Virus genome (UHGV): UHGV-0097968
DNA from: a virus
Direction: 5' to 3' (one strand)
Length of the DNA stretch: 47,717 nt
A program made the position numbers and the translations under genes. Shown piece by piece: positions 29,927 through 47,166 of the stretch; within the stretch, counting starts at the first letter, position 1; every line of letters begins with the position of its first letter. The notes below the pieces were generated by a model. It ran no database searches, was not told where the DNA came from, and saw nothing but the letters and a program-made list of their open reading frames with translations.

Positions 29927-31497
29927 CTGCTCCACAGCAGCTGCTCGGGCCTGACGGTAAAACGCCACTACGCCGTTTTGCGGGGTATAACGGCGGCGGT
30001 CCCGGCTTCGGTGGCCAGCTGATTGACTGGAATGCACCACAGCAAAGTGCCGATGCGGCACTGCTGCCTAATTTTTATCGCGGTAACGCGCGAGCAGACG
30101 ATCTCGTTCGCAATAACGGCGTCGCATCGAACGCTGTGCAGCTGCACCAGGATCACATCGTCGGCAATCTGTTTAAGCTGAGTTACCGCCCTAACTGGCG
30201 TTACCTAGGGATATCTCGCGAGGACGCCAGGGCGCTGGCGCGTGACGTTGAGGTCGCGTGGACTGAATACGCCGAGGACCCTCACTGCACGATTGATATC
30301 GAGCGGAAACGGACGTTCACAATGATGATCCGCGAGGGCGTGGCTACTCACGCTTTCAACGGTGAAACCTGCGTACAACCAGTCTGGGAGAGTAGTGCCG
30401 GCAGCGTTTTTCGGACGCGATTCAAAATGGTCTCACCGAAACGGATTCGAAATCCGGGTTACGCAGCTGACACCCAATTTCGCCGCGCCGGTGTTGATAT
30501 CGATAAAAACGGGGCCGCGGTCGGGTATTGGATAGCCGAGGATACCTACCCCCTCGGCGGAGTCGGTAAATGTCGGCGTATCCCAGCACAGCTCAGCAGC
30601 GGCAGACACGCATTCATCCACATATTCGAGCCGCTCGAGGACGGACAGACCCGCGGAGATAACATTTTTTACAGCGTAATGGAGCGGTTGAAAATGCTCG
30701 ATACGCTGCAGCAAACACAGCTGCAGAGCGCCATCGTGAAAGCGATGTACGCCGCCACAATCGAATCAGAGCTCGACAGCCAGCAGGCGTTTGAATATAT
30801 CGCCGGCGCGGGTACTGATATCGACTCGAACCCGCTGAATTCGTTTATTCAGAGTTACGTGACGTACTACAACGGCGCAAATATCAAGCTCGGTGGTGTG
30901 AAAGTTCCCCACCTGCATCCCGGCGACAAACTCAGTTTACAGACCGCTCAGAATGCTGATGCTGGTTTCAGTTCGCTGGAAAAATCACTCCTGCGTTACG
31001 TTGCCGCTGGCGTCGGCGCGTCATATGAGGAACTGAGTCGGGACTACAGCCAGGTCAGTTACTCCAGCGCGCGGGCCAGCGCAAACGTGAGCTGGCGTTT
31101 TTTCATGGGCCGTCGACGTTTTATCGCCGCACGACAGGCGTCACTGATGTTCTGCTGCTGGTTTGAGGAAGCTCTGGCGCGCGGAGTTATCACCCTGCCA
31201 CGCTCAGCGGTCCGGTCGTTTTATGAGGCGCGGAACTCCTGGACGAATGCGCTCTGGATCGGTGCAGGTCGCATGGCCATCGACGGACTGAAAGAGGTTC
31301 AGGAGAGTGCAATGCGTATCACGACTGGCCTCAGCACGTATCAGAACGAACTGGCGCTGCAGGGGCAGGACTACGAGGAGGTCATGGAACAACAGGAATA
31401 CGAAATTCAGCGCCGGCGCGAAATGGGGCTGAGCGAACCATCCTGGTCAGTATCTCACCCCTCAAATACCAACGATAACGGCTGGGGAGGTAACTGA
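29923..31497 (+). CDS. Portal protein, lambda gpB family
   Basis: 524-aa ORF following terL and gpW in lambda order. Confidence 0.9.
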   Translation: MTAPQQLLGPDGKTPLRRFAGYNGGGPGFGGQLIDWNAPQQSADAALLPNFYRGNARADDLVRNNGVASNAVQLHQDHIVGNLFKLSYRPNWRYLGISREDARALARDVEVAWTEYAEDPHCTIDIERKRTFTMMIREGVATHAFNGETCVQPVWESSAGSVFRTRFKMVSPKRIRNPGYAADTQFRRAGVDIDKNGAAVGYWIAEDTYPLGGVGKCRRIPAQLSSGRHAFIHIFEPLEDGQTRGDNIFYSVMERLKMLDTLQQTQLQSAIVKAMYAATIESELDSQQAFEYIAGAGTDIDSNPLNSFIQSYVTYYNGANIKLGGVKVPHLHPGDKLSLQTAQNADAGFSSLEKSLLRYVAAGVGASYEELSRDYSQVSYSSARASANVSWRFFMGRRRFIAARQASLMFCCWFEEALARGVITLPRSAVRSFYEARNSWTNALWIGAGRMAIDGLKEVQESAMRITTGLSTYQNELALQGQDYEEVMEQQEYEIQRRREMGLSEPSWSVSHPSNTNDNGWGGN

Positions 31498-32807
31498 TGC
31501 CGTGGAACAATTTTCCGCACCTTGCCGCCCGGGCGTTCAATCAACCGCTTTTGCTGGAGCCCGCCTACGCGCGGGTATTTTTTTCGGCACTGAGCGACCG
31601 GTTCGGTACCGGGCGACTGATTGATACAGCGTCCGGAGAGGTAATGAGCAGTGACGAAATGAACGCGCTCGCGATGGGGTGGGACAGCACAGAGCGAACA
31701 CGCCAGAAATCGTACCGCGTGGAGCGTGGTATAGCTGTTCTGCCGGTTACCGGGACACTGGTTCATAAATTGGGTTATATCAATCCGGTTAGCGGTATGA
31801 GCGGTTACGACGGAATCGTAAAACGCCTGCAGCAGGCGATTTCTGATCCCGATGTTAAGGGGATTTTGCTGGATATTGACTCCCCAGGTGGTGAGGTTGC
31901 CGGCGCGTTTGATACTGCTGATTTAATCGCCCGGGCGCGAGAGCAAAAACCAGTCTGGGCGCTGGCCAGTGATACAGCCTGCAGCGCCGCCTATTTGCTG
32001 GCGTCAGCGTGTTCGCGCCGGCTGATAACGCAGACCGGCACGGTTGGTTCAATCGGCGTCCTGATGGCTCACCGCTGCGTCGAAAAAGCGCTGGAGATTG
32101 CCGGCGTTGACGTGACGCTGATTTACGCCGGTGCGCACAAGGTCGACGGGAACCCGTATTCCCAATTGCCCGACGACGTTCGCGACGAATTCCAGCTGAG
32201 TATTAACTGCACACGCGAGCAGTTCGCGCAAAAAGTCTCGGATTATACCGGGCTGAAAAAATCCAGGGTGCTGGCCACAGAGGCCGCAGTATTTATCGGC
32301 GCGGACGCGATTAAATCTGGTCTCGCTGATCAACTCGTTAATTACGCGGACGCTATCGCAGTGATGGCCGACGCACTGAAACCAAAAATGGAGCGATTTA
32401 TGCCAGGTACAACAGAAACCACGGCGGAGACCACGACCACAGAACAAACCGCGGCTACGACTACGGTCGCGCCGGTTGAGTCCAACGCGGAGCAGATTCG
32501 CGCGGACGCCGCATCGAGCGAACTGGCACGCGTGATGGCCATCATCAACTGTCCCGAAGCTGTTGGGCGCGAGGCGCAGGCAAAAGCGCTCGCTGGCGTC
32601 CCCGGGATGACGGTCGGGCAGGCGCAGACGGTCCTCGCGGCAGCACCGCAAACAGCGCAGGCGCGGACAGAAACGGCGCTCGATACACTCATGAGCACTG
32701 AATCACCGGAAACTATTCAGGATGCCGGCAGCACCACGGCAACAGGAACAGCCGCAAACGTCTCGATGCTGGTTGCTGCAGGGCGTTCAATTTTAGGGGA
32801 TGAATAA
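31497..32807 (+). CDS. Prohead protease/scaffold (lambda gpC-Nu3-like, S49 peptidase)
   Basis: 436 aa; N-terminal ClpP/S49-like region (GILLDIDSPGGEV...ASDTACSAAYLLASA), Ala/Thr-rich C-terminal scaffold-like tail. Confidence 0.85.
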   Translation: MPWNNFPHLAARAFNQPLLLEPAYARVFFSALSDRFGTGRLIDTASGEVMSSDEMNALAMGWDSTERTRQKSYRVERGIAVLPVTGTLVHKLGYINPVSGMSGYDGIVKRLQQAISDPDVKGILLDIDSPGGEVAGAFDTADLIARAREQKPVWALASDTACSAAYLLASACSRRLITQTGTVGSIGVLMAHRCVEKALEIAGVDVTLIYAGAHKVDGNPYSQLPDDVRDEFQLSINCTREQFAQKVSDYTGLKKSRVLATEAAVFIGADAIKSGLADQLVNYADAIAVMADALKPKMERFMPGTTETTAETTTTEQTAATTTVAPVESNAEQIRADAASSELARVMAIINCPEAVGREAQAKALAGVPGMTVGQAQTVLAAAPQTAQARTETALDTLMSTESPETIQDAGSTTATGTAANVSMLVAAGRSILGDE

Positions 32808-33136
32808 TGACCACAGAAACGTATAGCCCGGATGATTTTATTCTGGGACCCGATCTTGTTGTTACGACCGTCGGTCATTTTCAGGGCGGGATCAACGTAC
32901 CCCGGCTGACACCGATTATGCTCGACGCTACTGTCGGGACGTTTAAGGTTTGGGACGGCTCAGTCGGTAAAGCTATTGGCCTCACTGCCACCGCAGTTAA
33001 TACTGGCTCCAGTTCTGCAGACTGCTCGTACTATAAATCAGGCTCGTTCCGTTACACGGCGATTAACTGGGGTACGGTTACCGACGTAGCTAAACGCAAA
33101 TCAGCGTTTGCTGGTACGCCTGTCAGCGTCGGCTGA
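32807..33136 (+). CDS. Head decoration protein, lambda gpD-like
   Basis: 109 aa; LTPIMLDATVGTFKVWDG...YKSGSFRYTAINW...AFAGTPVSVG parallels lambda D. Confidence 0.8.
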   Translation: MTTETYSPDDFILGPDLVVTTVGHFQGGINVPRLTPIMLDATVGTFKVWDGSVGKAIGLTATAVNTGSSSADCSYYKSGSFRYTAINWGTVTDVAKRKSAFAGTPVSVG

Positions 33137-33156
33137 TAGCAAAAAACTCAAAACAA

Positions 33157-33180
33157 GCCGCCTCCGGGCGGTTTTTTTTA
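33157..33180 (+). terminator. Rho-independent terminator/attenuator before the major capsid gene
   Basis: Stem CCGCC/GGCGG, loop TCCG, T8. Confidence 0.65.
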
Positions 33181-33194
33181 TACAGGATATCTAA

Positions 33195-34229
33195 ATGAGC
33201 GATTCGTTTACTACGTCAGAATTGATTACCGCGACACAGCAGGTATTTAAGTTCAATCCGTTGTTTTTAAGACTGTTTTTCCGTGAGACCTACACGTTTA
33301 CGAGCGAAGAGGTTTTTCTGGATAAAATCCCGGGTAAGGTCAATATGGCGGTGTATTGCGCGCCGATGATCACCGGCAAAGTAGATCGCACCCGCGGCTA
33401 TTCAACTAACCATTTTAAGCCGGGTTACACGAAGCCGAAACACACGATCAATCCGAATATGAGCATCAAGCGCGCCGGCGGAGAGCCGATTAGTGAGCCA
33501 TTAACTCCCGTAATTCGTCGCGCCAAACTCATCATGCAGAACCTGCTCGATGAGGAACTGAGCATCAGCCAGCTCGAAGAATATCAGGCGGTACAGGCTG
33601 TTCTGTACGGTAAATACACAGTTTCCGGCAGCAATATCGAGACCTATGAGATCGACATGAGCCGCAGCGCGACGAATAACGTCACTCAGTCCGGTTCGAC
33701 AGCCTGGTCGACTCAGGATGCGGAAACGTATGACCCGAGCGACGATATCGAATCTTATGCGGACCTTGCATCCGGTGCTGTTAACGTCATCATTATGGAC
33801 GGTAAAGCCTGGAAGCAGTTGAAGCGTTTTAAAAAGTTCTGGACGGCACTGGATACGCGCCGCGGCTCAAACAGCCAGCTCGAAGTCGCGCTGAAAAACC
33901 TGGGCGACGTCGTTAGCTTTAAGGGCTATTACGGCGACACAGCGTTGTTTGTCTACAAAGGACAATACATCGATCCGGAGACAGGCACTGAAAAGCGTTA
34001 TATGCCGGATAGCACGATGATTTTGGGCAACACAAAAAATCGCGGACTCCGCACTTATGGCGCAATCCAGGACGAAGACGCTTTGAAAGAGGGTATCAGC
34101 GAGGCCACGCGCTATCCGAAGGTCTGGACCACTACCGGTGATCCAGCGGTGACGCAAACAATGACCCAATCCGCGCCAGCAATGGTCCTCACCGACGCTG
34201 ATGCGTTCGTCGTCGTAAAAATCGCGTAA
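33195..34229 (+). CDS. Major capsid protein, lambda gpE family
   Basis: 344 aa with end-to-end similarity to lambda E by recollection (FKFNPLFLRLFFRE, TRRGSNS, NTKNRGLRTYG, YPKVWTTTGDPA). Confidence 0.95.
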   Translation: MSDSFTTSELITATQQVFKFNPLFLRLFFRETYTFTSEEVFLDKIPGKVNMAVYCAPMITGKVDRTRGYSTNHFKPGYTKPKHTINPNMSIKRAGGEPISEPLTPVIRRAKLIMQNLLDEELSISQLEEYQAVQAVLYGKYTVSGSNIETYEIDMSRSATNNVTQSGSTAWSTQDAETYDPSDDIESYADLASGAVNVIIMDGKAWKQLKRFKKFWTALDTRRGSNSQLEVALKNLGDVVSFKGYYGDTALFVYKGQYIDPETGTEKRYMPDSTMILGNTKNRGLRTYGAIQDEDALKEGISEATRYPKVWTTTGDPAVTQTMTQSAPAMVLTDADAFVVVKIA

Positions 34230-34250
34230 GAGCCGAAAGGCTCTTTTTTG
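34229..34250 (+). terminator. Rho-independent terminator after major capsid gene
   Basis: Stem GAGCC/GGCTC, loop GAAA, T6. Confidence 0.65.
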
Positions 34251-34263
34251 TTAAGGAATCAAC

Positions 34264-34683
34264 ATGAGCACAAAAACAGAATTGCTGGCGAGAATCGACG
34301 ATCTGAGCGCACAGCTCGGTCGCGAATTACCGCGTAGCGGGACTATTGCGGAACTTGAATCAATCGTCGCCGGTGCTGAGTCAGAGCTCGATATTCTGAA
34401 TGAGCAATCTGGTGACGCGGGAGGCATCGAGATTGCGGTGAATACTGCGCCCGGGACTGATAGCGATCTCGCTCAATCAATTACGAGCACCATCGTTTCA
34501 CAGTCACAAGAGCAGAAAATCGCATTAATTACGCGTCGCGTAAAGCTGCGTAACACACTGGATATTTATCACTACGTGAACGGGCGTCGTGTTCGCGAGA
34601 TTGTTGCCGAAGGCCGTGAAATTATTGTCGATTCGCCTGAAGTCGCAGACCTCATCGCAGCTGGTCACGTTTACGCTCTATGA
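34264..34683 (+). CDS. DNA-packaging/head completion protein (FI-like, by position)
   Basis: 139-aa acidic ORF directly after major capsid gene. Confidence 0.45.
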   Translation: MSTKTELLARIDDLSAQLGRELPRSGTIAELESIVAGAESELDILNEQSGDAGGIEIAVNTAPGTDSDLAQSITSTIVSQSQEQKIALITRRVKLRNTLDIYHYVNGRRVREIVAEGREIIVDSPEVADLIAAGHVYAL

Positions 34684-35060
34684 GCTACTACGATGACCTC
34701 CGGGCTGGCGACGAAGAGATGATTCGTGAGTGGGGACGGCCCGTTAAATTACGCGGTAAAACCGACCCCATTATCGCTATTTTCAACGAGCCTTACGCGC
34801 GCGTTGACGTTCCTCACGCTGGTTTTATTACCGGTACAGTAACGAGCCTGACGGCGCTCTCGGACGACGTCGCTGGCGTTGTTGCGCGTGACGTCGTCCA
34901 GGTTCCAAAGCAGCGCAGCATCGAACCTGACGGCTCTGTTACCTGGTCTGGCTGGACCGATTACGTGGTTAAAGAGCCTCAACCTGATGGCACAGGGCTC
35001 ACGAATATTTTTTTAGAGCCTCACACGTCCAGCGAAAACAGCGAGTATTCAAAATACTAA
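34680..35060 (+). CDS. Head-tail connector protein (FII-like, by position)
   Basis: 126-aa ORF following FI-like gene. Confidence 0.4.
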   Translation: MSYYDDLRAGDEEMIREWGRPVKLRGKTDPIIAIFNEPYARVDVPHAGFITGTVTSLTALSDDVAGVVARDVVQVPKQRSIEPDGSVTWSGWTDYVVKEPQPDGTGLTNIFLEPHTSSENSEYSKY

Positions 35061-35069
35061 GGGGGAACC

Positions 35070-35750
35070 GTGGCCGATTTACGTAGTAACGCGCAGATGT
35101 TCGATATCGATGTTTCGGCGCTGGAGCAGCTCAGAGTCGAAATCAGCGCGACGCAACATCAAATGTTAATGGCATACAACAGGGCGCTGAACCGAACTGC
35201 AAAACATATGCACCGAATTTCAGCAGGAATGATTTTGACTGCACTGGCAGCTAAAAATCATAAGGCCGTAGATAAACGAATCAAGCCGTTCATTAAGCGC
35301 CGTAATTTTACAAAAGAAGGGGCTGGAGACCTGAGCAGCGCCAAGCTCTGGTACGGTCTGAATGATTTCCGGGTATCTGAGCTAAAGGGGCGATTACAAA
35401 ATCCACGGAGGCAAAAACAGCCTCGCGATCCTGAGACCGGCCTGTTTTTGAAAACCAAAAAAGGCGCTAGAGGGGCAACTTTTACACCCAAAAGTGCAGG
35501 GCTGGCGATGATGAGTTGGCCCGATTCATTCGTAGCGAAACGCTACGGTGCGAAAAGTGTCTGGATTCGACTGGCTCGCGGAGGAATCGAGGAGGCTCGC
35601 GTACCGGTACACGAAGCGCTGGAGTATGCTATCGATGATTATATTTTTGAAAACATTGGCACCGTGTTCATGGGTTTTTTTGAACAGGACTTGCGCGGTC
35701 GCGTGAAAGGTAATGTCCACGTAGAGCCAAAAACAGGTAAACGATTATGA
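35070..35750 (+). CDS. Phage structural/morphogenesis protein, unassigned
   Basis: 226-aa ORF between head and baseplate modules. Confidence 0.5.
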   Translation: MADLRSNAQMFDIDVSALEQLRVEISATQHQMLMAYNRALNRTAKHMHRISAGMILTALAAKNHKAVDKRIKPFIKRRNFTKEGAGDLSSAKLWYGLNDFRVSELKGRLQNPRRQKQPRDPETGLFLKTKKGARGATFTPKSAGLAMMSWPDSFVAKRYGAKSVWIRLARGGIEEARVPVHEALEYAIDDYIFENIGTVFMGFFEQDLRGRVKGNVHVEPKTGKRL

Positions 35751-36283
35751 GCGGACTGGATGCATTTGACGAATATCTTGATCGCGTTAAAGGCGCGGTT
35801 TTACAAATACCGTTCATCAAAACATTCGGAATTTATCCGGAAATTCCGGCTGGATTTGAAACGCCAGCTCTGTTCCTGGAAATCAGCAACTGGTCACAGA
35901 GTGACGAATCGGTTCCAGGCTCAATTCAGTCAGTCGAGCTGTCGTGTAATTTGTATTTGCTGCGTGAATTTGCAGCTGATCAGTACGGACTTAAATCGCA
36001 GAATGCAGCGCTCTATATGACGAGCTGGATTAATGGGCGAATGTTTGGTGCCGGAACTAAACCAGCAAAATTCAGCGACGCGGAACCGTGTGACTGGATT
36101 AAAAACGGGCAGTCAGTCGGTTCGCATTCAGTTCAGTGCGTGTCGTTCACGCAGGTTGTAGGCGTTGGTCCAGATATTTTCGATTATCCCTCACAGGGAA
36201 CCCTGAAAAATATATACGTCGGAATAGCGCCAGATATCGGCGCAGAACACGAGAGCGACTACTATGGCCCAATCGGACGATGA
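35747..36283 (+). CDS. Phage structural/morphogenesis protein, unassigned (possible tail completion)
   Basis: 178-aa ORF with overlapping start/stop coupling. Confidence 0.5.
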   Translation: MSGLDAFDEYLDRVKGAVLQIPFIKTFGIYPEIPAGFETPALFLEISNWSQSDESVPGSIQSVELSCNLYLLREFAADQYGLKSQNAALYMTSWINGRMFGAGTKPAKFSDAEPCDWIKNGQSVGSHSVQCVSFTQVVGVGPDIFDYPSQGTLKNIYVGIAPDIGAEHESDYYGPIGR

Positions 36284-37166
36284 ATATGCCGCAGCGGAGA
36301 ACGCGCGTCGGCTGCGTGACGCAGTTAAACGCGGCACGATAGCTGCAGTTCAGATGAATCCTCCAAGATGTCGCGTGTCGTTTGGTGGAGAACACCAATC
36401 GGGCTGGCTACAATGGTTCACGCACGCGACATCGGAGCGCGTGGACTGGAGCGCCCCATCTGTTGGCGACCCAGTCACTGTTGTTTCTGAGGGGGGAGAT
36501 ACGCGAAATGGCGTCGTCATGCTCGGATTACATATTGACAACAAAGCACCGCCCAGTACTGACCCTCACGACCACGTCACCGTATATTGTGACGGCGCAA
36601 CGCTAACCTATAACACAGAAAACCACACTCTCATCTGGCAAGGAGTACCAGAAGGAATTGTAAAAATTCTCGGCGAATCCAAAATAGAAATTTTGGGTCG
36701 CGCAGAAGTTACGGTCACAAGTGAAAACGTTGTCAATATTCACGGCGGAAAATTAATTAACGCAGACGCTGACGTTATTAACGTGACAGCGACAGATACA
36801 ATTAACGCGCACGCTGATTTAGTGAACGTAATAGCAACAAGTTCAGTAAGTGTTACCGCCGCGAATAGTATATCGCTGACGGCAGAAACAATAAGAGCAT
36901 TAGCGCCCGGCGGGATAACGCTAGCAGGTCCAACGCATATAACAGAAACGCTGGTTGTTGATAAACTGGCGACATTCCGCAACGATATTTCTGTCACTGG
37001 AGATAACGGTGGAACAGGTAATATCACAACTCGCGGTAGTGTGTTAGCAGGGCAAGAGGTGCAGGACCGACAAGGCACAATGACTGAGGTCCGCACAACG
37101 TACAACGGACACACTCACACATGTCCTGATGGGGAAACACAACAACCGAACCAACCAATGGCGTAA
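36264..37166 (+). CDS. Baseplate assembly/spike protein, P2 gpV-like
   Basis: 300 aa; N-terminal CRVSFGGEHQSGWLQWFTHA...WSAPSVGDPV matches P2 V by recollection; repetitive beta-helix-like middle. Confidence 0.8.
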   Translation: MAQSDDEYAAAENARRLRDAVKRGTIAAVQMNPPRCRVSFGGEHQSGWLQWFTHATSERVDWSAPSVGDPVTVVSEGGDTRNGVVMLGLHIDNKAPPSTDPHDHVTVYCDGATLTYNTENHTLIWQGVPEGIVKILGESKIEILGRAEVTVTSENVVNIHGGKLINADADVINVTATDTINAHADLVNVIATSSVSVTAANSISLTAETIRALAPGGITLAGPTHITETLVVDKLATFRNDISVTGDNGGTGNITTRGSVLAGQEVQDRQGTMTEVRTTYNGHTHTCPDGETQQPNQPMA

Positions 37167-37168
37167 AT

Positions 37169-37510
37169 ATGCTTGGAATGGACCGTAACACCGGTAAGCC
37201 TTTATCGGGGACTGATCACATTCGTCAGTCTATCGTTGATATTTTAACGACCCCGCTGGGGACGCGTGTAATGTTGCCGGAATATGGCAGCAAATTATTT
37301 GATCTTGTTGATAATCCCACAGATCCGTCGCTTGCTATGCGAATAATCATGGAAAGCGCTGGCGCAATAGCTCGCTGGGAACCACGCGTCAGAATTGACA
37401 GAATAAATGTGTTAGCAGTGGATGTCGGGAAAATAACAATATTAATTATCGCAACAGATATCGAAACACAACAGCGATTAGAGTTTAATAATATGGAGCT
37501 GATATTTTGA
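37169..37510 (+). CDS. Baseplate protein, P2 gpW-like (GPW/gp25 family)
   Basis: 113 aa; HIRQSIVDILTTPLGTRVMLPEYGSKL...WEPRV parallels P2 W. Confidence 0.8.
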   Translation: MLGMDRNTGKPLSGTDHIRQSIVDILTTPLGTRVMLPEYGSKLFDLVDNPTDPSLAMRIIMESAGAIARWEPRVRIDRINVLAVDVGKITILIIATDIETQQRLEFNNMELIF

Positions 37511-38427
37511 TAACATCAACAGTTCAGAATTCGATAGTGAAAACTATTGATATGAGTCTGCTGCCGCCGCCCGCGTTTGTTAAAACCCCGCTATTTTCAG
37601 ATGTTAAATCTAATCTATTGTCAGAGCTGCAGATATTATATCCACAATTTAACGCACTCCTGGAGTCAGACCCGGCCGTTAAACTGCTGGAAATAGTTGC
37701 ATACAGAGAAATTATCATTACAGCGCGGGTAAATCAGGGGATGCTCGCGGTATTACTCGCGTTTGCAAAAGAGTGGGACCTCGACCAGATTGGCGCTAAT
37801 TTTGACTGCCTGCGGCTGTTGATAACGCCAGCTAATCGTGATGCGATTCCCCCGACTGAGGCGGTTTACGAGAGTGACGACGAGTATCGTCATCGCATAC
37901 AGCTATCGTGGTACGCGCGGAATACTGCCGGCAGTACAAACGCGTATAACTATTTCGCGCTATCGAGTGATCCCGACGTTCTGTCAGCTCAGGCATACGG
38001 ACCGCCGGTGACACAACCAGGGTACGTCGATATGTACGTTTTGTCCCGAACCGGCGACGGTGTACCTCCGCAATCACTACTGAATACAGTGAATGCGGCT
38101 CTGTCTCCTGACGATACTCGACCGCTGACTGATTTCGTGACTGTAAAACCTGCGTCGAACCTGAATTACCGGGTTGAGGCCGTTATCGTAGCCGGGCTTG
38201 GACCCGACCAGAACGTTTTGCTTAACGGTGCTCAGAGCGATTTGGCGATATATGTGGATACGCAGCATAAAATCGGAGCGACGGCAGCTCTGTCAGGAAT
38301 TTACGACGCGATACATCGTGACGGCACTGAACGTGTGATTCTGATATCGCCAACAGAGGACGTGATTGCTGGCGTCGGACAGGCTCCGCACTGCACTGAA
38401 ATTAAACTCAGCGTGCAAATGGGGTAG
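37507..38427 (+). CDS. Baseplate protein, P2 gpJ-like
   Basis: 306 aa; motifs LDQIGANF, YESDDEYRHRIQLS, RPLTDFVTV parallel P2 J. Confidence 0.85.
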   Translation: MITSTVQNSIVKTIDMSLLPPPAFVKTPLFSDVKSNLLSELQILYPQFNALLESDPAVKLLEIVAYREIIITARVNQGMLAVLLAFAKEWDLDQIGANFDCLRLLITPANRDAIPPTEAVYESDDEYRHRIQLSWYARNTAGSTNAYNYFALSSDPDVLSAQAYGPPVTQPGYVDMYVLSRTGDGVPPQSLLNTVNAALSPDDTRPLTDFVTVKPASNLNYRVEAVIVAGLGPDQNVLLNGAQSDLAIYVDTQHKIGATAALSGIYDAIHRDGTERVILISPTEDVIAGVGQAPHCTEIKLSVQMG

Positions 38428-38429
38428 CT

Positions 38430-39056
38430 ATGGCAAGTCAAAGTGTGCTGCCTCCGAACGCAATAACTCCCGAGAGGGCGCTTGAGGTTGTTTTATCTCA
38501 CGTCGGAGATCTGCCTGGCGATATTCGAATTATTAAAAATCCCGATTTGTGCCCTGCAAATCTGTTGCCGTGGCTGGCGTGGGAGTACGCGGTCACCTAC
38601 TGGAACCCCGACTGGAGTGAGCAGCAAAAACGCGAAATTATTAAGGCCGCAGCCTGGCAAAATAAACATCGCGGCACGCGTGGTGCCGTCGAACGAGCAT
38701 TATTAACGGTGGGATTTGAGAGCAAAATGAGAGAGTGGTTTGAAGCCACGCCCAGGGACGACCCGTATACATTCGCAATTAAAATATATCTGCTAAAAAG
38801 TATAGGGTTAGATTTAGAGCTATTGAATACCTTTATTGCACAAATATTTGATGCAAAAAATTGCCGTTCCTTATTAAAAGAAATAAATTTTGAAACGGGT
38901 GTCGATGGTGAGTTTTTTATAGCTGGTGCACCTTACGCGAAAATAGGCGTAAATATCCCAGCAGACGGCGACGGCGGTGTAAAAATTAACGGCGGGCTAT
39001 ATATATCAGGCTCGCCAATTGTTAGTTTAAATGTGGAGATAGGGCCAAATGGCTGA
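38430..39056 (+). CDS. Tail protein, P2 gpI-like
   Basis: 208 aa; LLPWLAWEYAV...W...KHRGTRGAV parallels P2 I. Confidence 0.8.
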   Translation: MASQSVLPPNAITPERALEVVLSHVGDLPGDIRIIKNPDLCPANLLPWLAWEYAVTYWNPDWSEQQKREIIKAAAWQNKHRGTRGAVERALLTVGFESKMREWFEATPRDDPYTFAIKIYLLKSIGLDLELLNTFIAQIFDAKNCRSLLKEINFETGVDGEFFIAGAPYAKIGVNIPADGDGGVKINGGLYISGSPIVSLNVEIGPNG

Positions 39057-40227
39057 AAATAAAATTTACGCAGTACTGACAGACCGGGGGGCACAACTTG
39101 AGGCCGCGGCATTAGCATCAGGTGTGCCGGTAGTACTGAATAAATTCGTTATTGGTGACGCGAACGGAAACGACGACGTAACACCGGACCCGTCACGAAC
39201 AGTATTAATTCACGAAACGTATCGCGGAGATATTAAATCGTCAGAAAATAGCGGCAATCAGGTTATTTTTACACTGTACGTACCACCGGAAACCGGCGGT
39301 TATACTATTCGAGAGGTTGGAATATTAACAGATAAAGGCGAGCTGTACTCTGTAGCACGCTCGCCGGATATTTTAAAACCCACGGACAGCAACGGCGCGC
39401 TGATTTCAATCACATATAAATACACTCTCGCGGTGTCCAGCGCGTCTACTGTTAACGTTGTCATTGATAACAGTAGTGGAATGAGCCAGGCAGATGCAGA
39501 TAAGCGTTATTTGCAGATAAGCAAAAATTTATCTGAAATTAAAGATAAGGGCGCGGCGGCGCAACAAGCTGGGCGAGAAAATCTCGGCGTTAACTTAAAT
39601 AACTATTATAAAAAAGAAGAGATAGATAATAAATTTTCAGAAGTGGATAATGAGTTAAATAATATAAACCCAGTCATGACGGTTAACCATTTACAGCCTG
39701 ATTCTGACGGCAACGTTAATGTGGATTCGGGATACGCAAAACTGGGCGGCGACGGGGCATTTAATTTAGTTGCTCTGTTTCCGCAGCAATCTGAACCTGA
39801 CGCGACAAATAAAACCATGCCTGGTTACCGGCTTTCTTCTGTGATATTTAAAGCGAATCCCAGCCTTGAAATTTTGGCTCATGGATATTTATTTGGATTG
39901 TGGGAATTAATTGCCATTCCGTTAGTGACAGTATCTAGCGGATACGAACTGAATGGCGGTGTTTCTGGTGCTGTAATGGCTCGGCGAATTCCTGTTGGCA
40001 ATATAAACAAATTCAGCAATATAAAAAACCCTCATTATCCTCAGGGCCGTGGCGTGGTGGGAACGTATGAAACTGCCTACATAAACATTGAATGCGATAT
40101 TGAGGGAGTTGGAACCGGACTAATATTCACGACAAATAATAATGATGTTGAGGAATACGGTCGTCAATTATATCAAAACGCAATAAGCGGTATGTACGGC
40201 ACAGTAACAAACGGTTATCAAAGTTGA
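39049..40227 (+). CDS. Tail fibre protein, P2 gpH-like N-terminus with divergent AT-rich C-terminal part
   Basis: 392 aa; N-terminal VIGDANG...LIHETYRGDI...GGYTIREVGIL matches P2 H anchor domain by recollection; C-terminal region compositionally different. Confidence 0.75.
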   Translation: MAENKIYAVLTDRGAQLEAAALASGVPVVLNKFVIGDANGNDDVTPDPSRTVLIHETYRGDIKSSENSGNQVIFTLYVPPETGGYTIREVGILTDKGELYSVARSPDILKPTDSNGALISITYKYTLAVSSASTVNVVIDNSSGMSQADADKRYLQISKNLSEIKDKGAAAQQAGRENLGVNLNNYYKKEEIDNKFSEVDNELNNINPVMTVNHLQPDSDGNVNVDSGYAKLGGDGAFNLVALFPQQSEPDATNKTMPGYRLSSVIFKANPSLEILAHGYLFGLWELIAIPLVTVSSGYELNGGVSGAVMARRIPVGNINKFSNIKNPHYPQGRGVVGTYETAYINIECDIEGVGTGLIFTTNNNDVEEYGRQLYQNAISGMYGTVTNGYQS

Positions 40228-40239
40228 TGGAGGTAATAA

Positions 40240-41739
40240 ATGAGCACTAATTTTTTGCACGGCCCCCGCACGCTCGAATACGACGACGGAACAAAAGAGA
40301 TCAGCACGGTCGATATTTCCGTTATCGGTATCGTCGGCACTGCCCCGGATGCGAGCGCCCCCACATGCGCATCACTACTATGGGGATCAGAACTCGCAGA
40401 TAATCTTGTTCAGTTTTCCACTGTCATGCCTGGGGCCGACGGAAACAACTGGATTGTCGAAATCGTCAATCTCGGTATTAACGGGAATGTGGCAACTCCG
40501 GGATACAGCACACTGCCCGACGGTTCGAGAAAATTAACAATGATCACGGACGGTGCCATGACTCCGTCAAAAATGTACGATCAGAACCAGCAGTATAAAG
40601 AAGGACTCCAGATTGGAGAATATATTAACGTCACATTCGGTGGTGATCACGCAGGAACGGGGACTGTATTCGCGCTCCCCCCAACAAATTTATCCGGTGG
40701 TAAAGACGAATCGTTCAAATATAATGTTCCGACGTTAATTGCAGGCAGTCAGAAAAAAGCTGGATTGCTCGGTGGGTCTGGTACGCTTCTTTCCGCTGTA
40801 TCTGAAATACTAAATCAGGAGGATGCCATTATTGTTGTTGTCCGCGTCGAAGAGGACAGCGACGAAACAAAAATGAGGCAGAACGTCGTTAACGGGATTA
40901 ACGCACTGTTGACGTCTGCACAAATAAATCAAGTGACGCCGAGAATTTTAATCGCTCCAGATTATAGTGCTAACGATTATATTGCAGAACAACTTGAAGT
41001 GGTGACAAATAAATTACGAGGTGTTGGATATATCGATTCACAGCGAGGCGCTACGCCTGCTGACGTTGTGAATCGTCGTCAGAGGTACGGCGGCAGGATG
41101 GAAATTTTACGCCCTCGCGTTTATTCTACGAGTGATGTCAGTGGGTTATCTCGTCCGTATTCAGCTATCGCTGCTGGTTTGCGAGCCAGAATTGATAATG
41201 AAAAAGGATTCTGGTGGAGTAAATCGAACCAGAATATCTACGGAGTTACAGGGCTTGAACAAGTCGACGATTTTATTATTGGTGAGACAAACTGCACAGC
41301 GAACCTGTTGAACGCCAGTCAGGTCAGCACAATTATTCGCTATGACGGGTTCCGGCACTGGGGTAACTATCTGTGTAGCCTCAGTCCCCAATGGTCCTTT
41401 GAATGCGTTCGTCGAACAGCTGACGTAATTGAGGATTCTATAGCCCGGGCAATGATGACCGATTTTATTGATCGTCCGATAGACCTGCACCTCGGAACAG
41501 ACGTTGTCGAGTCGATAAACGCATATCTGCACAAATTAGAGGAGCAGGGCGCGATTAACGGAGGGCGTGCGTGGTTAGACAGTGAGCTGAATACAAAAGA
41601 AAGCCTGGCTGCGGGGAATCTTTATATTAATGTCGATTTTGGCCCGAAATCTCCGGCACAAACAATTACGTTAATGTACCGCATTAATAATGACTATACA
41701 GTTGAAGCGCTGGCCTCCCTTTTTAAAGAAACAGCCTGA
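40240..41739 (+). CDS. Contractile tail sheath protein
   Basis: 499-aa ORF at sheath position of a P2/Mu-like tail module, followed by tube and chaperone genes. Confidence 0.85.
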   Translation: MSTNFLHGPRTLEYDDGTKEISTVDISVIGIVGTAPDASAPTCASLLWGSELADNLVQFSTVMPGADGNNWIVEIVNLGINGNVATPGYSTLPDGSRKLTMITDGAMTPSKMYDQNQQYKEGLQIGEYINVTFGGDHAGTGTVFALPPTNLSGGKDESFKYNVPTLIAGSQKKAGLLGGSGTLLSAVSEILNQEDAIIVVVRVEEDSDETKMRQNVVNGINALLTSAQINQVTPRILIAPDYSANDYIAEQLEVVTNKLRGVGYIDSQRGATPADVVNRRQRYGGRMEILRPRVYSTSDVSGLSRPYSAIAAGLRARIDNEKGFWWSKSNQNIYGVTGLEQVDDFIIGETNCTANLLNASQVSTIIRYDGFRHWGNYLCSLSPQWSFECVRRTADVIEDSIARAMMTDFIDRPIDLHLGTDVVESINAYLHKLEEQGAINGGRAWLDSELNTKESLAAGNLYINVDFGPKSPAQTITLMYRINNDYTVEALASLFKETA

Positions 41740-41756
41740 TAATTCGGAGAGTAAAT

Positions 41757-42269
41757 ATGTCAGATAGCAACGCTTACCGCGCGTTTGCGCTATTCGTGCA
41801 AGGTGAACGGGTTTTAAATTGTACTGAATATACTCCTGTTGATATGAAAATAATCGAAGACGAGTTTAAAACTGGCGCAATGGATACAGCCATCACTCTG
41901 GATGGGGGGATGGAGAAAATGTCAGCCAGTTTTAAAGTTTCAGGTTCTGATTCTGGTGTTATGAGTTATTTCGGGTTAATACCGGGAGTTAAGACGCGGT
42001 TTGAAATTCGTAGTGCGTACACAGACTCCTACGGAATAAATTTTGAGCGTATTGATACCTACGAGGGGCTTATTACGGCAATCACTGATGATGCTCAGGG
42101 GACTGATTCAAAATCGTCAGTGGGGCAATCAGTAACAATTGCGCCGAGCTATTATAAACGAGTTCAAAACGGACGAGTTATTTACGAAATTCATCCTGCA
42201 AAAATGAAACGCGTTATCAACGGTGTTGATGTTCTTGCGGGCGTCGCTCGAATCCTTCATGTATATTAA
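41757..42269 (+). CDS. Tail tube protein
   Basis: 170-aa ORF directly after sheath. Confidence 0.8.
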   Translation: MSDSNAYRAFALFVQGERVLNCTEYTPVDMKIIEDEFKTGAMDTAITLDGGMEKMSASFKVSGSDSGVMSYFGLIPGVKTRFEIRSAYTDSYGINFERIDTYEGLITAITDDAQGTDSKSSVGQSVTIAPSYYKRVQNGRVIYEIHPAKMKRVINGVDVLAGVARILHVY

Positions 42270-42281
42270 AAGGTAAGTAAA

Positions 42282-42563
42282 ATGGAATCCTTATTAGACA
42301 GTATGACTATTACGCTCTCTCGACCGTTTATTATTAAGGGCGAGAGCTGCGATACAATTACTATTCGCGAACCAAAATTACGTGACCGCATTATGTTCAG
42401 TAACGATAAAAGCGGTCTTGAAGAGCGGACAGCGACAATGCTGGCGCGCCTGGCAAATCTGGAGAGAGAGGATTTATATGCGCTCCCCGCGTGCGATTAC
42501 GATCAACTGGAGGCCGCGTTTAACGAACTGGTAAAGCACCCGAAAGACCGACATCAGATATAG
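42282..42563 (+). CDS. Tail assembly chaperone (P2 gpE-like); a -1 frame extension is open to 42694
   Basis: 93-aa ORF before tape measure; the -1 frame is open from 42524 through 42694 and overlaps the tape measure start, as in P2 E/E+E' and lambda G/GT. Confidence 0.6.
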   Translation: MESLLDSMTITLSRPFIIKGESCDTITIREPKLRDRIMFSNDKSGLEERTATMLARLANLEREDLYALPACDYDQLEAAFNELVKHPKDRHQI

Positions 42564-42671
42564 TTATTCTGATTCCGTTTATTGCGAAAAAACTTGCCAT
42601 CCCGCCTGATACGCAAATGGACCTGCCGTATCGGGTTTTTAATTTCTATGTAGACGAGGTCATGAAAACTG

Positions 42672-44312
42672 ATGGCTATTTCTCAAAACTTTAAAACGCA
42701 GGTTGTATTCGGGGGGCGAATAGACCCGTCGTTTCGGCGCGGTACAACAGAACTCAACGATGCAATTCGGCAGACGTCGTCTACTGTCGGAAAATTAACG
42801 AAAAGTCAGGATAAATTAAAAGACAAAATCGCAGCAATGAAACTGGCAGGTAAAGACGTTTCTGATTTATCTGCTCAGTATCAAAAGCTGGACCGTCGAA
42901 TAAAAGCGACAACGCAGGACCAGGAGGCACTGAATACTCAGCTTGCTAAAAAACAACGGCTGGAGAAGTGGACGGGTCGCGCAAAAGGGGCTGCAAAATG
43001 GGGCGGTCGAGCGACTGCAAGAACGATAAAGGCAACAGGAAAAGGCATCAAATGGGGGACGCTTGGCGCGGCAGGTCTCATTGGTGGCGCTGCTGCTGGC
43101 GCGCTGGCAATGAACGCAGAGACGTCAGAAAAACTCGGTCTGGCGAAGTCATACGGTGTTGGCGTTGAAAAATATGCTGCGTGGGAAAATATTGGTAAAG
43201 CCGCGGGCCTGAACGGCGAAAATATCGGGGATTTGTCTGAAGAACTTACAAATAAAATCGGCGAAATCGGAAACGAAAAAAATCTGAATCCCATGTTGTT
43301 TCAAATCGGCCTGACGAAAAAACGAATGGCTGGCTGGGATCGGGAAAAGCAGTTTAATGAAGTTATGCGTCGCATCTCTGAAATGAAAGATGAGAAGCAA
43401 GCGGCGAGCCTCGCTGACCAGCTCATGGGGGGCGAGGCTAATAAGATCATGACGTATATGAAGGCGACGGGTAAAAGCTGGGAACAGACAATGTCTGACG
43501 CGCAAAAGTCGAATTTGTTAACAAAAGAGGGTGCGGAAGGGGCGGCGCGTGCGCATGTATCTGTAACAAATTTGTGGGGATCGATAACGTCAGGACTTGC
43601 AGATACACTTGGTAAAATTGGGGGTGAGCTCGCGCCGACGTTTGACTCAGTTCGCGAAACATTTACAGCATGGTTTAAGGACAATCAGGGCGGATTTGTC
43701 AGCACAATTACTGAGTGGGTAAAGCCCGAAAGCATGAAAAAAATGTGGGAGGGGATAGTCAGTTTTGGCGAAGCTTGCGTTAAATTCGGAAAAATAATTT
43801 GGGCAGTAGCAAAAAGACTTGAGTGGTTAATTCCGGACGAGAAAACAGACGAGGAACAGCGCGTATATAACGAAGAATATAATAAGGCGTATCAGGAATT
43901 CATGGATAGTGGTGGTAAATATTCACCGAATCCAGGACTGGCAGCAGATAATGTAGCAAAAGCAAAAGCCGACGAAGCCGTAGATAATATGCGACACCCT
44001 GAGCGTCTTGCGCGTGCAAAATCACAGGCTGAATCAATGCTCTCATTTGTTAACCCGTTTACTGGATTAATAAATAAAGACTCAACGCCTAAATCACAAA
44101 ACTCAGCAACGTTGAATATTGACGCGCTGAGACAGGCAGTCGCAACTCCAGCTCCAGAGCAAAACAATAAAATTGAAATCAATATTATCGGAGCAGCAGA
44201 CCCACAATCAACACAGCAGGCCGCTGCATCGGGTGTGCTCGACGGGCTGAGACAAGTTGCGAGTTCGTACAATCGTGGCGCGATGTTTGATAAACCAGCG
44301 GCGGCGGGGTGA
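42672..44312 (+). CDS. Tail tape measure protein
   Basis: 546-aa Ala/Gly/Lys-rich ORF with coiled-coil character downstream of chaperone. Confidence 0.85.
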   Translation: MAISQNFKTQVVFGGRIDPSFRRGTTELNDAIRQTSSTVGKLTKSQDKLKDKIAAMKLAGKDVSDLSAQYQKLDRRIKATTQDQEALNTQLAKKQRLEKWTGRAKGAAKWGGRATARTIKATGKGIKWGTLGAAGLIGGAAAGALAMNAETSEKLGLAKSYGVGVEKYAAWENIGKAAGLNGENIGDLSEELTNKIGEIGNEKNLNPMLFQIGLTKKRMAGWDREKQFNEVMRRISEMKDEKQAASLADQLMGGEANKIMTYMKATGKSWEQTMSDAQKSNLLTKEGAEGAARAHVSVTNLWGSITSGLADTLGKIGGELAPTFDSVRETFTAWFKDNQGGFVSTITEWVKPESMKKMWEGIVSFGEACVKFGKIIWAVAKRLEWLIPDEKTDEEQRVYNEEYNKAYQEFMDSGGKYSPNPGLAADNVAKAKADEAVDNMRHPERLARAKSQAESMLSFVNPFTGLINKDSTPKSQNSATLNIDALRQAVATPAPEQNNKIEINIIGAADPQSTQQAAASGVLDGLRQVASSYNRGAMFDKPAAAG

Positions 44313-44737
44313 CAATGAGTGATTCAATAAGCGGTGCTGAGGACATTATGCTCGGCCTGGGTGATTTCATTTTTGCTATATCAACAATAGCGTACAACAA
44401 ACTGCAACGTAGTGACGCCTGGCGCTGGGCTCAGCAAACACGATTCGGGAAAAACGACGCGTTGCAGATAACAGGACGACCGAACCCCACAATTACTATC
44501 GATGGAAAGATAAACGCTTTATTCCTTGACGGGTGCGGCGTCGGCCTGTTGACAGATTTGCGTGCGCTCGGGAACACGGGAGAACCCCAGCAGCTAGTGC
44601 TGGGGACCGGGGAGGTGAAAGGGTACTGGGTTATCAGGGAGTTAACAGAAACGCAAAACAGTTTTCTGAAAGGAGGAACCCCAAAATCGCAGGACTTTTC
44701 ACTCACGCTCGAATATTACGGAGCTTCGCTGGATTGA
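44309..44737 (+). CDS. Tail protein, P2 gpU-like
   Basis: 142-aa ORF immediately after tape measure. Confidence 0.65.
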   Translation: MTMSDSISGAEDIMLGLGDFIFAISTIAYNKLQRSDAWRWAQQTRFGKNDALQITGRPNPTITIDGKINALFLDGCGVGLLTDLRALGNTGEPQQLVLGTGEVKGYWVIRELTETQNSFLKGGTPKSQDFSLTLEYYGASLD

Positions 44738-44976
44738 ACTTCTTTCGGTTTTTTATCACCGAGAGCGGACCACAGCAACAGAATGATCCACATCAAAAAT
44801 ATCCATCCGAATAATATATTCAGAATAACGACCATTGCGCAGCTTTTATGTCCCCTTATTAGAGCAATTACTAACGGTATTACGTATAAAATGATGGATA
44901 TTAACGGGTTCGCCATTAACCATATATACAGAGCGATAACCCACGCAAATAATTCCATTTGAGGCCTCATAATCAT
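44716..44976 (-). CDS. Small integral membrane protein encoded antisense within the tail module (candidate moron)
   Basis: 86 aa, two to three hydrophobic helices; local AT-rich composition; convergent with gpU-like and divergent from gpX-like. Confidence 0.45.
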   Translation of the reverse strand: MIMRPQMELFAWVIALYIWLMANPLISIILYVIPLVIALIRGHKSCAMVVILNILFGWIFLMWIILLLWSALGDKKPKEVQSSEAP

Positions 44977-45187
44977 GATTACATATACGACGCGGGACGG
45001 GGACCGTCTCGATCAAATCTGCCTCGCGGTCTACGGGAGAGCGTCAAAAACGACAGAGACTGTTTTATATCAGGTTTCGAATTACGGCGTAACTGATATG
45101 TATACCGTGTTTCGTGCTGGAGAAAAAATTGTTTTACCAGATATTGAACCAGAACCGGTTAAAAAAGAAACGCAATTATGGGATTGA
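44975..45187 (+). CDS. Tail protein X (P2 gpX-like)
   Basis: 70 aa; MITYTTRDGDRLDQICLAVYG N-terminus typical of tail protein X by recollection. Confidence 0.7.
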   Translation: MITYTTRDGDRLDQICLAVYGRASKTTETVLYQVSNYGVTDMYTVFRAGEKIVLPDIEPEPVKKETQLWD

Positions 45188-45190
45188 TGA

Positions 45191-46234
45191 ATGAGTGATT
45201 ACGTAAATACTGGCGTGGAAGCATGGAAGCCCAATTTTTATATATCTGCTGATAATGAAAACATCACGGAAAAAATAAGAAAAGGTTTGATCAATATCAC
45301 GCTCACAGATTATGGCGGTTCGAGTAAACAGACAGACGAATTACGCGTAGCTATCGTTTCTGAAACACTGAAAATTCCGGCCCGTGGTGTGAAAATCAGT
45401 CTTGGGCTCGGTTTCGGTAATCAGATAATTGATAAAGGTATATACATCGTTGATGGTGCGAGCAGTGGCGGGGAACCCCGGGTAGTTGATTTCACAGCAA
45501 AAGCGGCTCCGATGAACGCGTCAAAAGGCGCTCCGACAGTTCAGAGCAAAAAAACTCGCTCCTGGAGCGACGTCACTGTCAGCAATATCGTTGCGACAAT
45601 AGCGAGCGATAACGGGCTTAAACCTCGCGTATCAAAGCGGTTTGCAGACAACATTATCACGCAGCTCGATCAAGTCGGTGAGTCAGATATGCACCTGATG
45701 TCGAGACTAGCAACACGATTCGATGCGGTGAGCAAACCCGCAGGAGGGTACTGGATATTCCTGCCGCGCGGCGCGGGCGAATCAGTTAGCGGTGCTCCGC
45801 TCCAGCACTACACGCTAACTCGTCGTGATAACTCCAGCTGGGGCTATTCGAGAAATGGACAAAGCGGTGATAGTGGCGGTGGTGGCGAAAATCCGGAGCC
45901 GACGTATCTGATTAAATATCACGACACAGCAACTGGGCAGATCAAAGAATTGCGGACAGGTAGTGGCGGCGATCCTGTCATTGAATGGCCGGCAGTTGAG
46001 CCGTCGCTCGACGCAGCGAAAGAAGCTGCACCAGGGCTCAAGGGCGGTGCAGCTAAAAAAGAGTTCTCTATGACGTACACGACGCCAGCGACGCTCGATT
46101 TAGTGTCGCTGACAGCAGAATGCAAAGTCACAACTCAAGGATTCGGGACCGAGGAGGACCGGGACTGGACTATCAACACGCTGAGCCTGACGCTTGCTGA
46201 AAACGGCTTTTCGGTTCGACTGTCTCTGGAGTAA
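45191..46234 (+). CDS. Tail protein D / late control D-like
   Basis: 347-aa ORF at gpD position after U and X. Confidence 0.8.
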   Translation: MSDYVNTGVEAWKPNFYISADNENITEKIRKGLINITLTDYGGSSKQTDELRVAIVSETLKIPARGVKISLGLGFGNQIIDKGIYIVDGASSGGEPRVVDFTAKAAPMNASKGAPTVQSKKTRSWSDVTVSNIVATIASDNGLKPRVSKRFADNIITQLDQVGESDMHLMSRLATRFDAVSKPAGGYWIFLPRGAGESVSGAPLQHYTLTRRDNSSWGYSRNGQSGDSGGGGENPEPTYLIKYHDTATGQIKELRTGSGGDPVIEWPAVEPSLDAAKEAAPGLKGGAAKKEFSMTYTTPATLDLVSLTAECKVTTQGFGTEEDRDWTINTLSLTLAENGFSVRLSLE

Positions 46235-46400
46235 ATTGGCTCGGCGAGCCGGTGGCGGGTATGAATTTAGTATTAACGACTGTCGACTGCAAACGGCACC
46301 TGCGATATTTTTAGGCGTAAGCCGGAGAACGAAGAGTCTCTGGTGCTGAACGTTGTTATCGTTAGATCCTGACATTTTTTAATATTGGGAGTTTTCAAAC

Positions 46401-46820
46401 ATGGTCGTTAAAAATGCTCTTGCCTGTGGGATTATGCTTGCTCTTGTCGGTTGTGCTACAAAACCTGTCTCAAATGAACAAGCCACTCCTGTTCCTGAAA
46501 AACAAATTATCAGCACCGCGTTACTCGAAAAACGAGACGGTACGGGAGAGGTGATCATCAAGCGTGACTCGGGTTTCTTTGGAAGCGCGTGCTTTTCCCG
46601 TGTTTATGTTGATGGTAAAGAGGTGGCAGATTTAGGTACAGCTCAGAAAGTCGTTGTATACCCAACGATTGGTGATCATGTCTTCAGCGCGTGGCCTAAA
46701 GGGGTATGTGGCGGTGGTATGAGTGAGCAGGCGGGCAAGGTGACAACAGATCGTACTTTGATGTATCGCATAGGGTATGGATCAAACGGTGAATATGGCA
46801 TTCACCCAACTGCGTTTTAA
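46401..46820 (+). CDS. Lipoprotein of unknown function at prophage right end (candidate lysogenic-conversion cargo)
   Basis: 139 aa; signal peptide with lipobox LVGC; located between last tail gene and attR with its own terminator. Confidence 0.7.
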   Translation: MVVKNALACGIMLALVGCATKPVSNEQATPVPEKQIISTALLEKRDGTGEVIIKRDSGFFGSACFSRVYVDGKEVADLGTAQKVVVYPTIGDHVFSAWPKGVCGGGMSEQAGKVTTDRTLMYRIGYGSNGEYGIHPTAF

Positions 46821-46828
46821 TTTGTGTT

Positions 46829-46860
46829 GGGGTATGTGAGTTTTTCTCATACCCCTTTAC
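46829..46860 (+). terminator. Terminator-like hairpin after the right-end lipoprotein gene
   Basis: 8-bp stem GGGGTATG/CATACCCC with T-rich tail. Confidence 0.45.
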
Positions 46861-47041
46861 CTCACTTTGCTCCTGACTGTTTGGTCACATCAAGGCGCAA
46901 AACATCACCATTTTTTGCCAAAAACCTTCAGAAGATGATGAGTAAGACGTGTCATAACTATATGATTATTTGATATTCACACGCACCATTATGTCCGGAT
47001 AATTTACCATAATCATTTGAATTTATTGCACAAAACGAACA

Positions 47042-47166
47042 ATTTAAAATCCCTCGGCGTTCGCGCTGTGCGGGTTCAAGTCCCGCTCCGGGTACCATGG
47101 GAAAGATAAGAATAAAATCAAAGCAATAAGCAGTGTCGTGAAACCACCTTCGGGTGGTTTTTTTGT
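47042..47166. repeat. attR: right copy of the 125-bp direct repeat (3' fragment of tRNA-Leu plus terminator)
   Basis: Identical by eye to 399-523; contains only the 3' 56 nt of the tRNA (47042-47097) plus the terminator hairpin. Confidence 0.85.

Follow-up and report, generated by a model that had tools for sequence, protein, structure and literature searches.

A gene of the T4 Imm family, predicted to act in superinfection exclusion, lies antisense at the gpU-gpX junction of a prophage tail operon

Introduction

What is a short open reading frame for a hydrophobic protein doing on the opposite strand of a phage tail operon, and is it a gene at all? The question is raised by UHGV-0097968, a virus genome of 47,717 nt that was analysed over its whole length and is referred to here as the window. 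An earlier note, made from the sequence alone, had drawn attention to a minus-strand ORF between the tail genes U and X and had read it as a moron encoding a small membrane protein, with superinfection exclusion or toxicity as possible functions.

Although the Imm protein of bacteriophage T4 was already known in the 1980s, it took until a 2026 preprint for the tape-measure protein to be identified as its target. That preprint reports co-purification of T4 Imm with the tape-measure protein gp29, specifically with its helical-bundle domain, and weaker exclusion by the R33A and W50A mutants (bioRxiv 10.64898/2026.03.06.709160). A literature search for prophage members of the Imm family, for experimental studies of them and for an arrangement of imm genes within tail operons found nothing. 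Here we present evidence that the minus-strand ORF is an imm-like gene (imm below), describe its position at a junction that takes up cargo in related phages, and weigh the functions it may have.

Results

The window contains a prophage of ~46.8 kb (399..47166). It is bounded by direct repeats of 125 nt (399-523 and 47042-47166) that match perfectly, contain the 3' part of tRNA-Leu(taa) (368-454) and represent the attachment sites; the integrase is encoded at 585..1631. Related prophages that share this tail module occupy other loci, for example near yodB/zinT in E. coli LD91-1. Two Rfam matches lie side by side on the plus strand, isrK at 13480-13555 (76 bits) and C4 antisense RNA at 13583-13668 (74 bits), and suggest an antisense-RNA immunity or anti-repressor control region of the P1/P7/P4 type. 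Three overlapping 45-nt direct repeats with a spacing of 22-23 nt (8117-8206) lie inside a 366-aa ORF (7743..8843) and appear iteron-like, as in a lambdoid replication-origin gene. A direct repeat of ~86 nt (92% identical) is found at 14540-14624 and again 3.6 kb away at 18141-18226, its copies lying at the ends of two minus-strand ORFs (14688..15611 and 18140..18745). At the right end of the prophage, a gene for a 139-aa lipoprotein (46401..46820, plus strand; PHROG 890; signal ending LVGC) stands alone between gpD and attR and is another cargo candidate; E. coli LD91-1 has a gene for a tail-fibre N-terminal domain at this position instead.

The tail genes around the ORF are all encoded on the plus strand. 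A gpU-like gene at 44309..44737 (PF06995, E=1.9e-32) is followed by the tail protein X gene at 44975..45187 (PF05489, E=5.9e-15) and by a gpD-like late control/baseplate hub gene at 45191..46234 (PHROG 52, E=1e-92), which matches PF05954 weakly (20.7 bits, under the Pfam cut-off of 30.1). Upstream of gpU lies a gene of 546 codons (42672..44312) presumed to encode the tape-measure protein because of its size and because it is flanked by the tail-assembly chaperone gene on one side and gpU on the other. Its product matches PHROG 3654, a family without assigned function, matches no tape-measure family in Pfam or NCBIfam, and has by hydropathy a Gly/Ala-rich hydrophobic segment at residues 126-150. 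The tail operon (40990-46236) is strongly mosaic when compared with L002, L012, L001 and L010, mismatches ranging from 0 to ~30 per 100 nt and divergence peaking within the tape-measure gene (43000-43800).

The gpU-gpX junction is filled by a cassette of 237 nt (44738..44974), delimited by a break in homology and by base composition. When the window was aligned with L001, which carries a different cassette (variant-B), homology ended exactly at the gpU stop codon and resumed at the gpX ATG. The AT-rich pocket described in the earlier note is reflected in the GC content, which is 0.38 in the cassette, 0.47 in the tail operon and 0.48 in the prophage as a whole. A GC content lower than that of neighboring genes was also the trend in L036-L041.

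The ORF in the cassette was originally described as 86 codons long, and in the list of ORFs for the window 44716..44976 (minus strand) is indeed its maximal extent. Its start was said to abut gpX; the first ATG in fact shares 2 nt with the gpX start codon (44975-44977), being the product of a palindromic CATG common to both. The six codons that begin there, MIMRPQ (44959..44976), have no ribosome-binding site, are not conserved in homologues, and are probably noncoding 5' UTR. All 17 of 17 homologues begin at ME(L/I)F, the equivalent of which in the window is the ATG at 44958, preceded at a distance of 6 nt by GAGG on the minus strand (44968..44965). Since all homologues begin there, translation most likely starts at ATG 44958 and yields a protein of 80 aa (44716..44958, minus strand; MELFAW...SSEAP). 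The GAGG belongs to a 10-nt palindrome, TGAGGCCTCA (44960..44969), read directly from the sequence, which gives GAGG on both strands: the minus-strand copy stands 6 nt ahead of the ATG of imm, the plus-strand copy 10 nt ahead of that of gpX. AAGG or GAGG also precedes the equivalent Met in the Salmonella locus L003 and in L006, from another E. coli lineage. RefSeq start calls vary, with 66 aa in one record and 80 aa in most. For annotation, the correct imm product is thus most likely 80 aa rather than 86 or 66.

At the other end, the reported overlap with the gpU-like gene is 22 nt long (44716..44737), the last six imm codons and the stop being the complement of gpU C-terminal codons. An overlap of 19-22 nt is also present in L003 and L006. 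In the alleles P0007-P0009, a frameshift gives a longer C-terminal tail (...KKTERSSIQRSSVIFERE) that reads further into the gpU antisense strand, which suggests that the last ~10 residues of the protein may be dispensable.

The 80-aa protein was assigned to the T4 Imm family by three comparisons. It matches Pfam PF14373 (Imm_superinfect) with 42.5 bits over profile positions 1-41 of 42 (cut-off 27.9, E=5.8e-11), and this is the only Pfam family matched at E<=0.1. It also matches PHROG 1039, 'immunity to superinfection', with E=3e-14. Finally, BLASTP against the 83-aa T4 prototype (NC_000866; UniProt P08986) gave 34% identity and 62% positives over 65 aa (E=5e-13); T4 Imm itself scores 58.2 bits on PF14373. 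Pairwise alignment places T4 residues R33 and W50 at R35 and W52 of the window protein (R41 and W58 in 86-aa numbering). Both residues are invariant in 18 of 18 aligned sequences and, by eye, also in the distant relatives P0018-P0026.

The earlier note had predicted two to three transmembrane helices. The hydropathy profile has two extended hydrophobic segments, one spanning residues 9-40 with a break at N23-P24 and one spanning residues 46-72, with a basic loop RGHK between them. An AlphaFold2 model (pLDDT 72) has helices at residues 5-22, 24-41 and 44-73, the RGHK loop separating the second from the third. The C-terminal tail is charged and disordered. The protein thus has the ~80-aa length, the multiple helices and the basic loop between hydrophobic helices that are typical of the T4 Imm family. 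A PDB sequence search returned only a designed transmembrane protein (E=0.013), which we took as noise. Foldseek gave no match in BFVD or PDB at E<=0.001, small helical hairpins being uninformative in such searches. NCBIfam and PADLOC assigned the protein to no family, and Rfam had no match in the imm region.

Many antisense ORFs of similar length occur in the window, and length alone is not unusual. Selection on the reading frame was estimated by comparing imm with its counterparts in L010 (E. whittamii), L006 (E. coli, 81% aa identity) and L003 (Salmonella enterica, 70% aa identity), which gave pN of 0.03-0.19 and pS of 0.26-0.9. Wherever dS could be estimated, dN/dS was ~0.05-0.10, indicating strong purifying selection in the minus-strand frame. 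Thus, relatives retain this frame, and the earlier note had named its loss among them as grounds for giving the gene up. The other five frames of the region contain 2-11 stops, except that in the Escherichia sequences one frame of the tail strand is also largely open. A profile search with the imm alignment recovered 3861 clusters (50% identity) at E<=0.001. Because the Pfam match exceeds the curated cut-off and purifying selection acts in that frame, imm stands above a chance ORF, and we are highly confident that it represents a genuine gene and a member of the T4 Imm family.

The protein has been named before. RefSeq and UniRef list an identical sequence (P0001, 100%) under the name 'superinfection immunity protein [E. 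coli]', and at least 1000 contigs encode it. A tblastn search of the phage collection with the 80-aa query found no match, probably because the low-complexity filter masked the hydrophobic sequence; DNA matches of the locus in that collection carry another cassette in place of imm. Scans of genome contigs and of viral contigs with the Imm alignment added two further close loci from each.

The junction was compared among relatives in a survey of gpX-containing viral contigs and in complete E. coli genomes. In 18 of 5426 complete genomes, E. coli E24377A (NC_009801) and SE11 (NC_011415) among them, the imm cassette is present, its 237 nt 100% identical and the gene mostly annotated as 'superinfection immunity protein', and in ~435 of the 5426 the same flanks (94.6% identity) enclose a different spacer of 173 nt. 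The insert-less relatives that the earlier note had proposed as a comparison exist: in L026-L034 gpU and gpX are 0-23 nt apart. Elsewhere the spacer is 237-242 nt with imm (the cassette is found in L017 and L023), 173 nt in L014-L022, 590 nt in L025 and 1265 nt in L024, and all inserts surveyed are AT-rich (GC 0.30-0.38) and antisense. Because some relatives are insert-less at this junction and others have different AT-rich antisense cargo there, we conclude that P2-type tail operons repeatedly take up antisense cargo (morons) between gpU and gpX, a hot spot for such inserts. The moron-like character proposed for the insert is therefore borne out by its presence or absence at one junction, by the breaks in homology at the gpU stop and the gpX ATG, and by its deviating base composition; a promoter and terminator of its own within the element, the further mark of a moron, were not found.

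The other cargo is of several kinds. The 173-nt cassette (L001, 3445..3579, minus strand; L014-L022) has an antisense ORF for a hydrophobic product of 44 aa, MRINFSSRRGISISASKKIPSGCFTFMFVVFFIIFILVKCSGSA; its ribosome-binding site is AAGGA, and it has no match in Pfam, PHROG or PADLOC. This ORF aligns with the N-terminus of a 176-aa antisense ORF in L024, and is for that reason probably a truncated remnant. The L024 insert itself (229..1491) holds two antisense ORFs of 176 and 220 aa. Among the small antisense ORFs of the L025 insert (896..1517), one has an N-terminus resembling a signal peptide. The ORFs in these two inserts matched no Pfam family.

The antisense order U-imm-X-D is shared with L003 and L006, and the identities of the encoded proteins permit a comparison of their divergence. 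Relative to L006 and L003, respectively, amino acid identity is 81 and 70% for imm, 81 and 57% for U, 83 and 83% for X, 89 and 73% for D, and 72 and 54% for the tape measure. Because the divergence of imm tracks that of U, X, D and the tape measure, imm appears to be an old resident that has diverged together with the tail module, not a newcomer. We also considered special mobility of the cassette, given its 100% identity in 18 genomes against ~95% in the flanks, and dropped the idea because the mosaic operon has other blocks with zero mismatches.

A wider association with tail genes was apparent among the eight nearest 50%-identity clusters of homologues, seven of which lie beside tape-measure, U, X or D genes, five of them antisense. 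In P0018, P0022 and P0023 the gene is antisense and directly between the tape-measure gene and gpX or gpD; in P0019 and P0020 it is antisense and just 3' of gpD; and in P0021 and P0026 it follows gpX or gpD on the same strand. The eighth, P0025, is on a short contig beside a Bro-N gene. These genomic places show this Imm sub-family to be in lasting association with the distal part of P2-type tail operons, in most cases on the strand opposite to theirs. P0030 (L042), a more distant member, has a non-phage chromosomal context. Distant members are thus found in non-phage chromosomal surroundings, and the family is therefore not exclusively an anti-phage device.

Signals for expression of imm were sought on the minus strand. 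The upstream promoter that the earlier note had recommended looking for did not appear: a consensus scan of the window found no sigma-70 promoter near imm, and a relaxed scan gave weak candidates only. A scan of the window for a terminator of imm was likewise negative. Scans of the imm strand of L003 and L006 found no promoter or terminator near the gene, except for a 9/12 site in L006 inside gpD; in L006 a terminator-like hairpin follows the imm stop codon and is absent from the window. Within the cassette only 16 nt separate the imm start from the gpX ATG, and the imm stop lies inside gpU; any imm promoter must therefore sit inside gpX or gpD.

The relaxed scan gave two candidates in that region whose positions are conserved. 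The first, TTTTCA-16 nt-AAAAAT, lies inside the 5' end of gpD (45234..45261, minus strand). At the equivalent position L006 has TTTACA-16-AAAAAT with TG in front of the -10-like half. Insert-less loci lack the -35-like half, and the -10-like half is conserved everywhere as gpD coding sequence. The second is a candidate -10 element, CATAAT (45175..45180, minus strand), at the junction of the gpX stop and the gpD start, with a poor -35; loci that carry imm or the 44-aa ORF have CATAAT here, and L024-L029 have CATAGT or CATAGC. Both promoter candidates are weak and in part explained by coding constraint. A 21-nt invariant block, AACCTGATATAAAACAGTCTC (45076..45056 on the imm strand), was rejected as an extended -10 promoter since it lacks the -7 T, and as an imm-specific signal since its core, GATATAAAAC, is also kept in insert-less phages as gpX coding sequence.

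Discussion

We consider it likely that imm acts in superinfection exclusion at the step of DNA entry. The exclusion role raised in the earlier note thus gains weight from membership of the T4 Imm family by Pfam, PHROG and BLASTP, the function being predicted from homology; the toxin alternative raised with it found no backing in Pfam, PADLOC or Rfam. According to the mechanism we propose, transcription of imm would not depend on the late operon, which is silent; this apparently explains why the gene is on the opposite strand. Its product would insert into the inner membrane. When a superinfecting phage with a contractile or long tail injects, Imm would bind the incoming tape-measure protein, which then could not open a channel for DNA through the inner membrane, and the genome would be kept out of the cytoplasm. 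We infer that imm is expressed while the prophage is repressed, that it confers exclusion, which phages it would act on, and that the tape-measure protein is its target; exclusion through tape-measure binding in particular is predicted from the homology and from the conserved residues R35 and W52.

T4 Imm is the closest parallel. Both proteins have an N-terminal helix followed by IAL-x-RG-x-KS and a hydrophobic core with (G/N)W, and they are of similar length (83 aa in T4, 80 aa here). The genomic settings differ. T4 is a virulent phage with imm among early/replication genes between genes 42 and 43, whereas the window gene belongs to a temperate prophage and lies antisense inside the tail operon, overlapping gpU. 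The partner of Imm in T4, Sp (spackle), was not seen here.

A second parallel is HK97 gp15, likewise a small inner-membrane protein encoded by cargo in the tail operon beside the tape-measure gene, and the first moron to be described. It blocks genome entry in a manner that depends on the tail of the incoming phage (PMC3594210). However, gp15 is non-homologous and belongs to the YebO family, to which the imm product shows no sequence similarity in the Pfam comparison. In addition, HK97 is a siphovirus and its moron has a recognizable promoter and terminator, unlike imm. Similarly, P22 SieA is an inner-membrane protein expressed from the prophage that blocks DNA entry of superinfecting phages (PMC10883804, PMC3594210). 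SieA is an unrelated, larger protein encoded at a different genomic location, and no homology to it was detected.

The immunity genes of pore-forming (ionophoric) colicins resemble imm in gene organization and logic alone, there being no sequence relationship. They encode small inner-membrane proteins and lie on the strand opposite to the inducible operon from which the membrane-inserting protein is made, with their own promoter (PMC9517006). The preprint on T4 itself likens Imm to colicin immunity proteins (bioRxiv 10.64898/2026.03.06.709160).

As in T4, where Imm acts during lytic infection (bioRxiv 10.64898/2026.03.06.709160), the gene could be expressed in the lytic cycle of the prophage itself, shielding a cell already infected or induced against secondary infection, and would then not be a lysogenic-conversion gene. 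The scans identified no constitutive promoter, and imm has co-diverged with the tail module, unlike recent cargo, both of which are compatible with such timing. However, the strong late transcript of the tail operon would be antisense to imm and would favor transcriptional interference, and the opposite strand is what one would expect of a gene uncoupled from late expression, by analogy with colicin immunity (PMC9517006). On balance we regard lytic-cycle expression as rather unlikely.

That the protein is a small membrane toxin, resembling type I toxins or abortive-infection effectors and depolarizing the membrane instead of blocking entry, strikes us as very unlikely. In its favor, the product combines small size and high hydrophobicity with a charged tail, cells grow poorly when T4 Imm is over-expressed (bioRxiv 10.64898/2026.03.06.709160), and other cargo at the junction also includes a small hydrophobic ORF. 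Against this stand the specific homology to Imm, functional residues included, the lack of any known antisense RNA or toxin family in Rfam, PADLOC and Pfam, and a 237-nt cassette that has no antitoxin-like partner. A role as a holin, antiholin or lysis-timing protein is suggested by a size and a two- to three-helix architecture like those of class II holins, and we judge it highly improbable. The prophage has a complete lysis cassette elsewhere (22927-24064), in which two adjacent holin-family genes (PHROG 198 and PHROG 217; 22927-23582) precede the endolysin gene (23582-24064), and imm has no holin family match in Pfam or PHROG and lies on the strand opposite to the late genes. Last, a chance antisense ORF without a product, for which the frequency of long antisense ORFs in the window and the missing promoter might be cited, is hardly credible and appears effectively refuted by the Pfam match, by the start codon and Shine-Dalgarno sequence conserved in three deep lineages, by the dN/dS values with their saturated synonymous sites, and by the thousands of family clusters in the profile search.

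Returning to exclusion at DNA entry as the favored function, the locus offers a compact natural test set, composed of an Imm with both functional residues, a closely related backbone with other cargo (~435 genomes) and insert-less relatives. With it one could ask whether prophage Imm proteins exclude via tape-measure proteins and whether the phages excluded depend on the tail module to which imm is linked.

The second of these questions leads to a speculative extension. The Imm homologues might be cognate partners of the tape-measure protein of the same tail module, the two forming co-evolving specificity pairs that serve kin exclusion. We hold this to be possible though on the unlikely side; the circumstantial support comes from the seven of eight clusters beside tape-measure, U, X or D genes, three of them abutting the tape-measure gene, and from an Imm divergence that tracks the tail module. 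If true, P2-type tail operons would carry, beside the gene for a membrane-inserting tape-measure protein, an independently expressed immunity gene on the opposite strand, an organization that mirrors pore-forming colicin operons with their immunity genes. Lysogens would then exclude phages of the same tail type, and this exclusion would drive diversification of the tape-measure protein.
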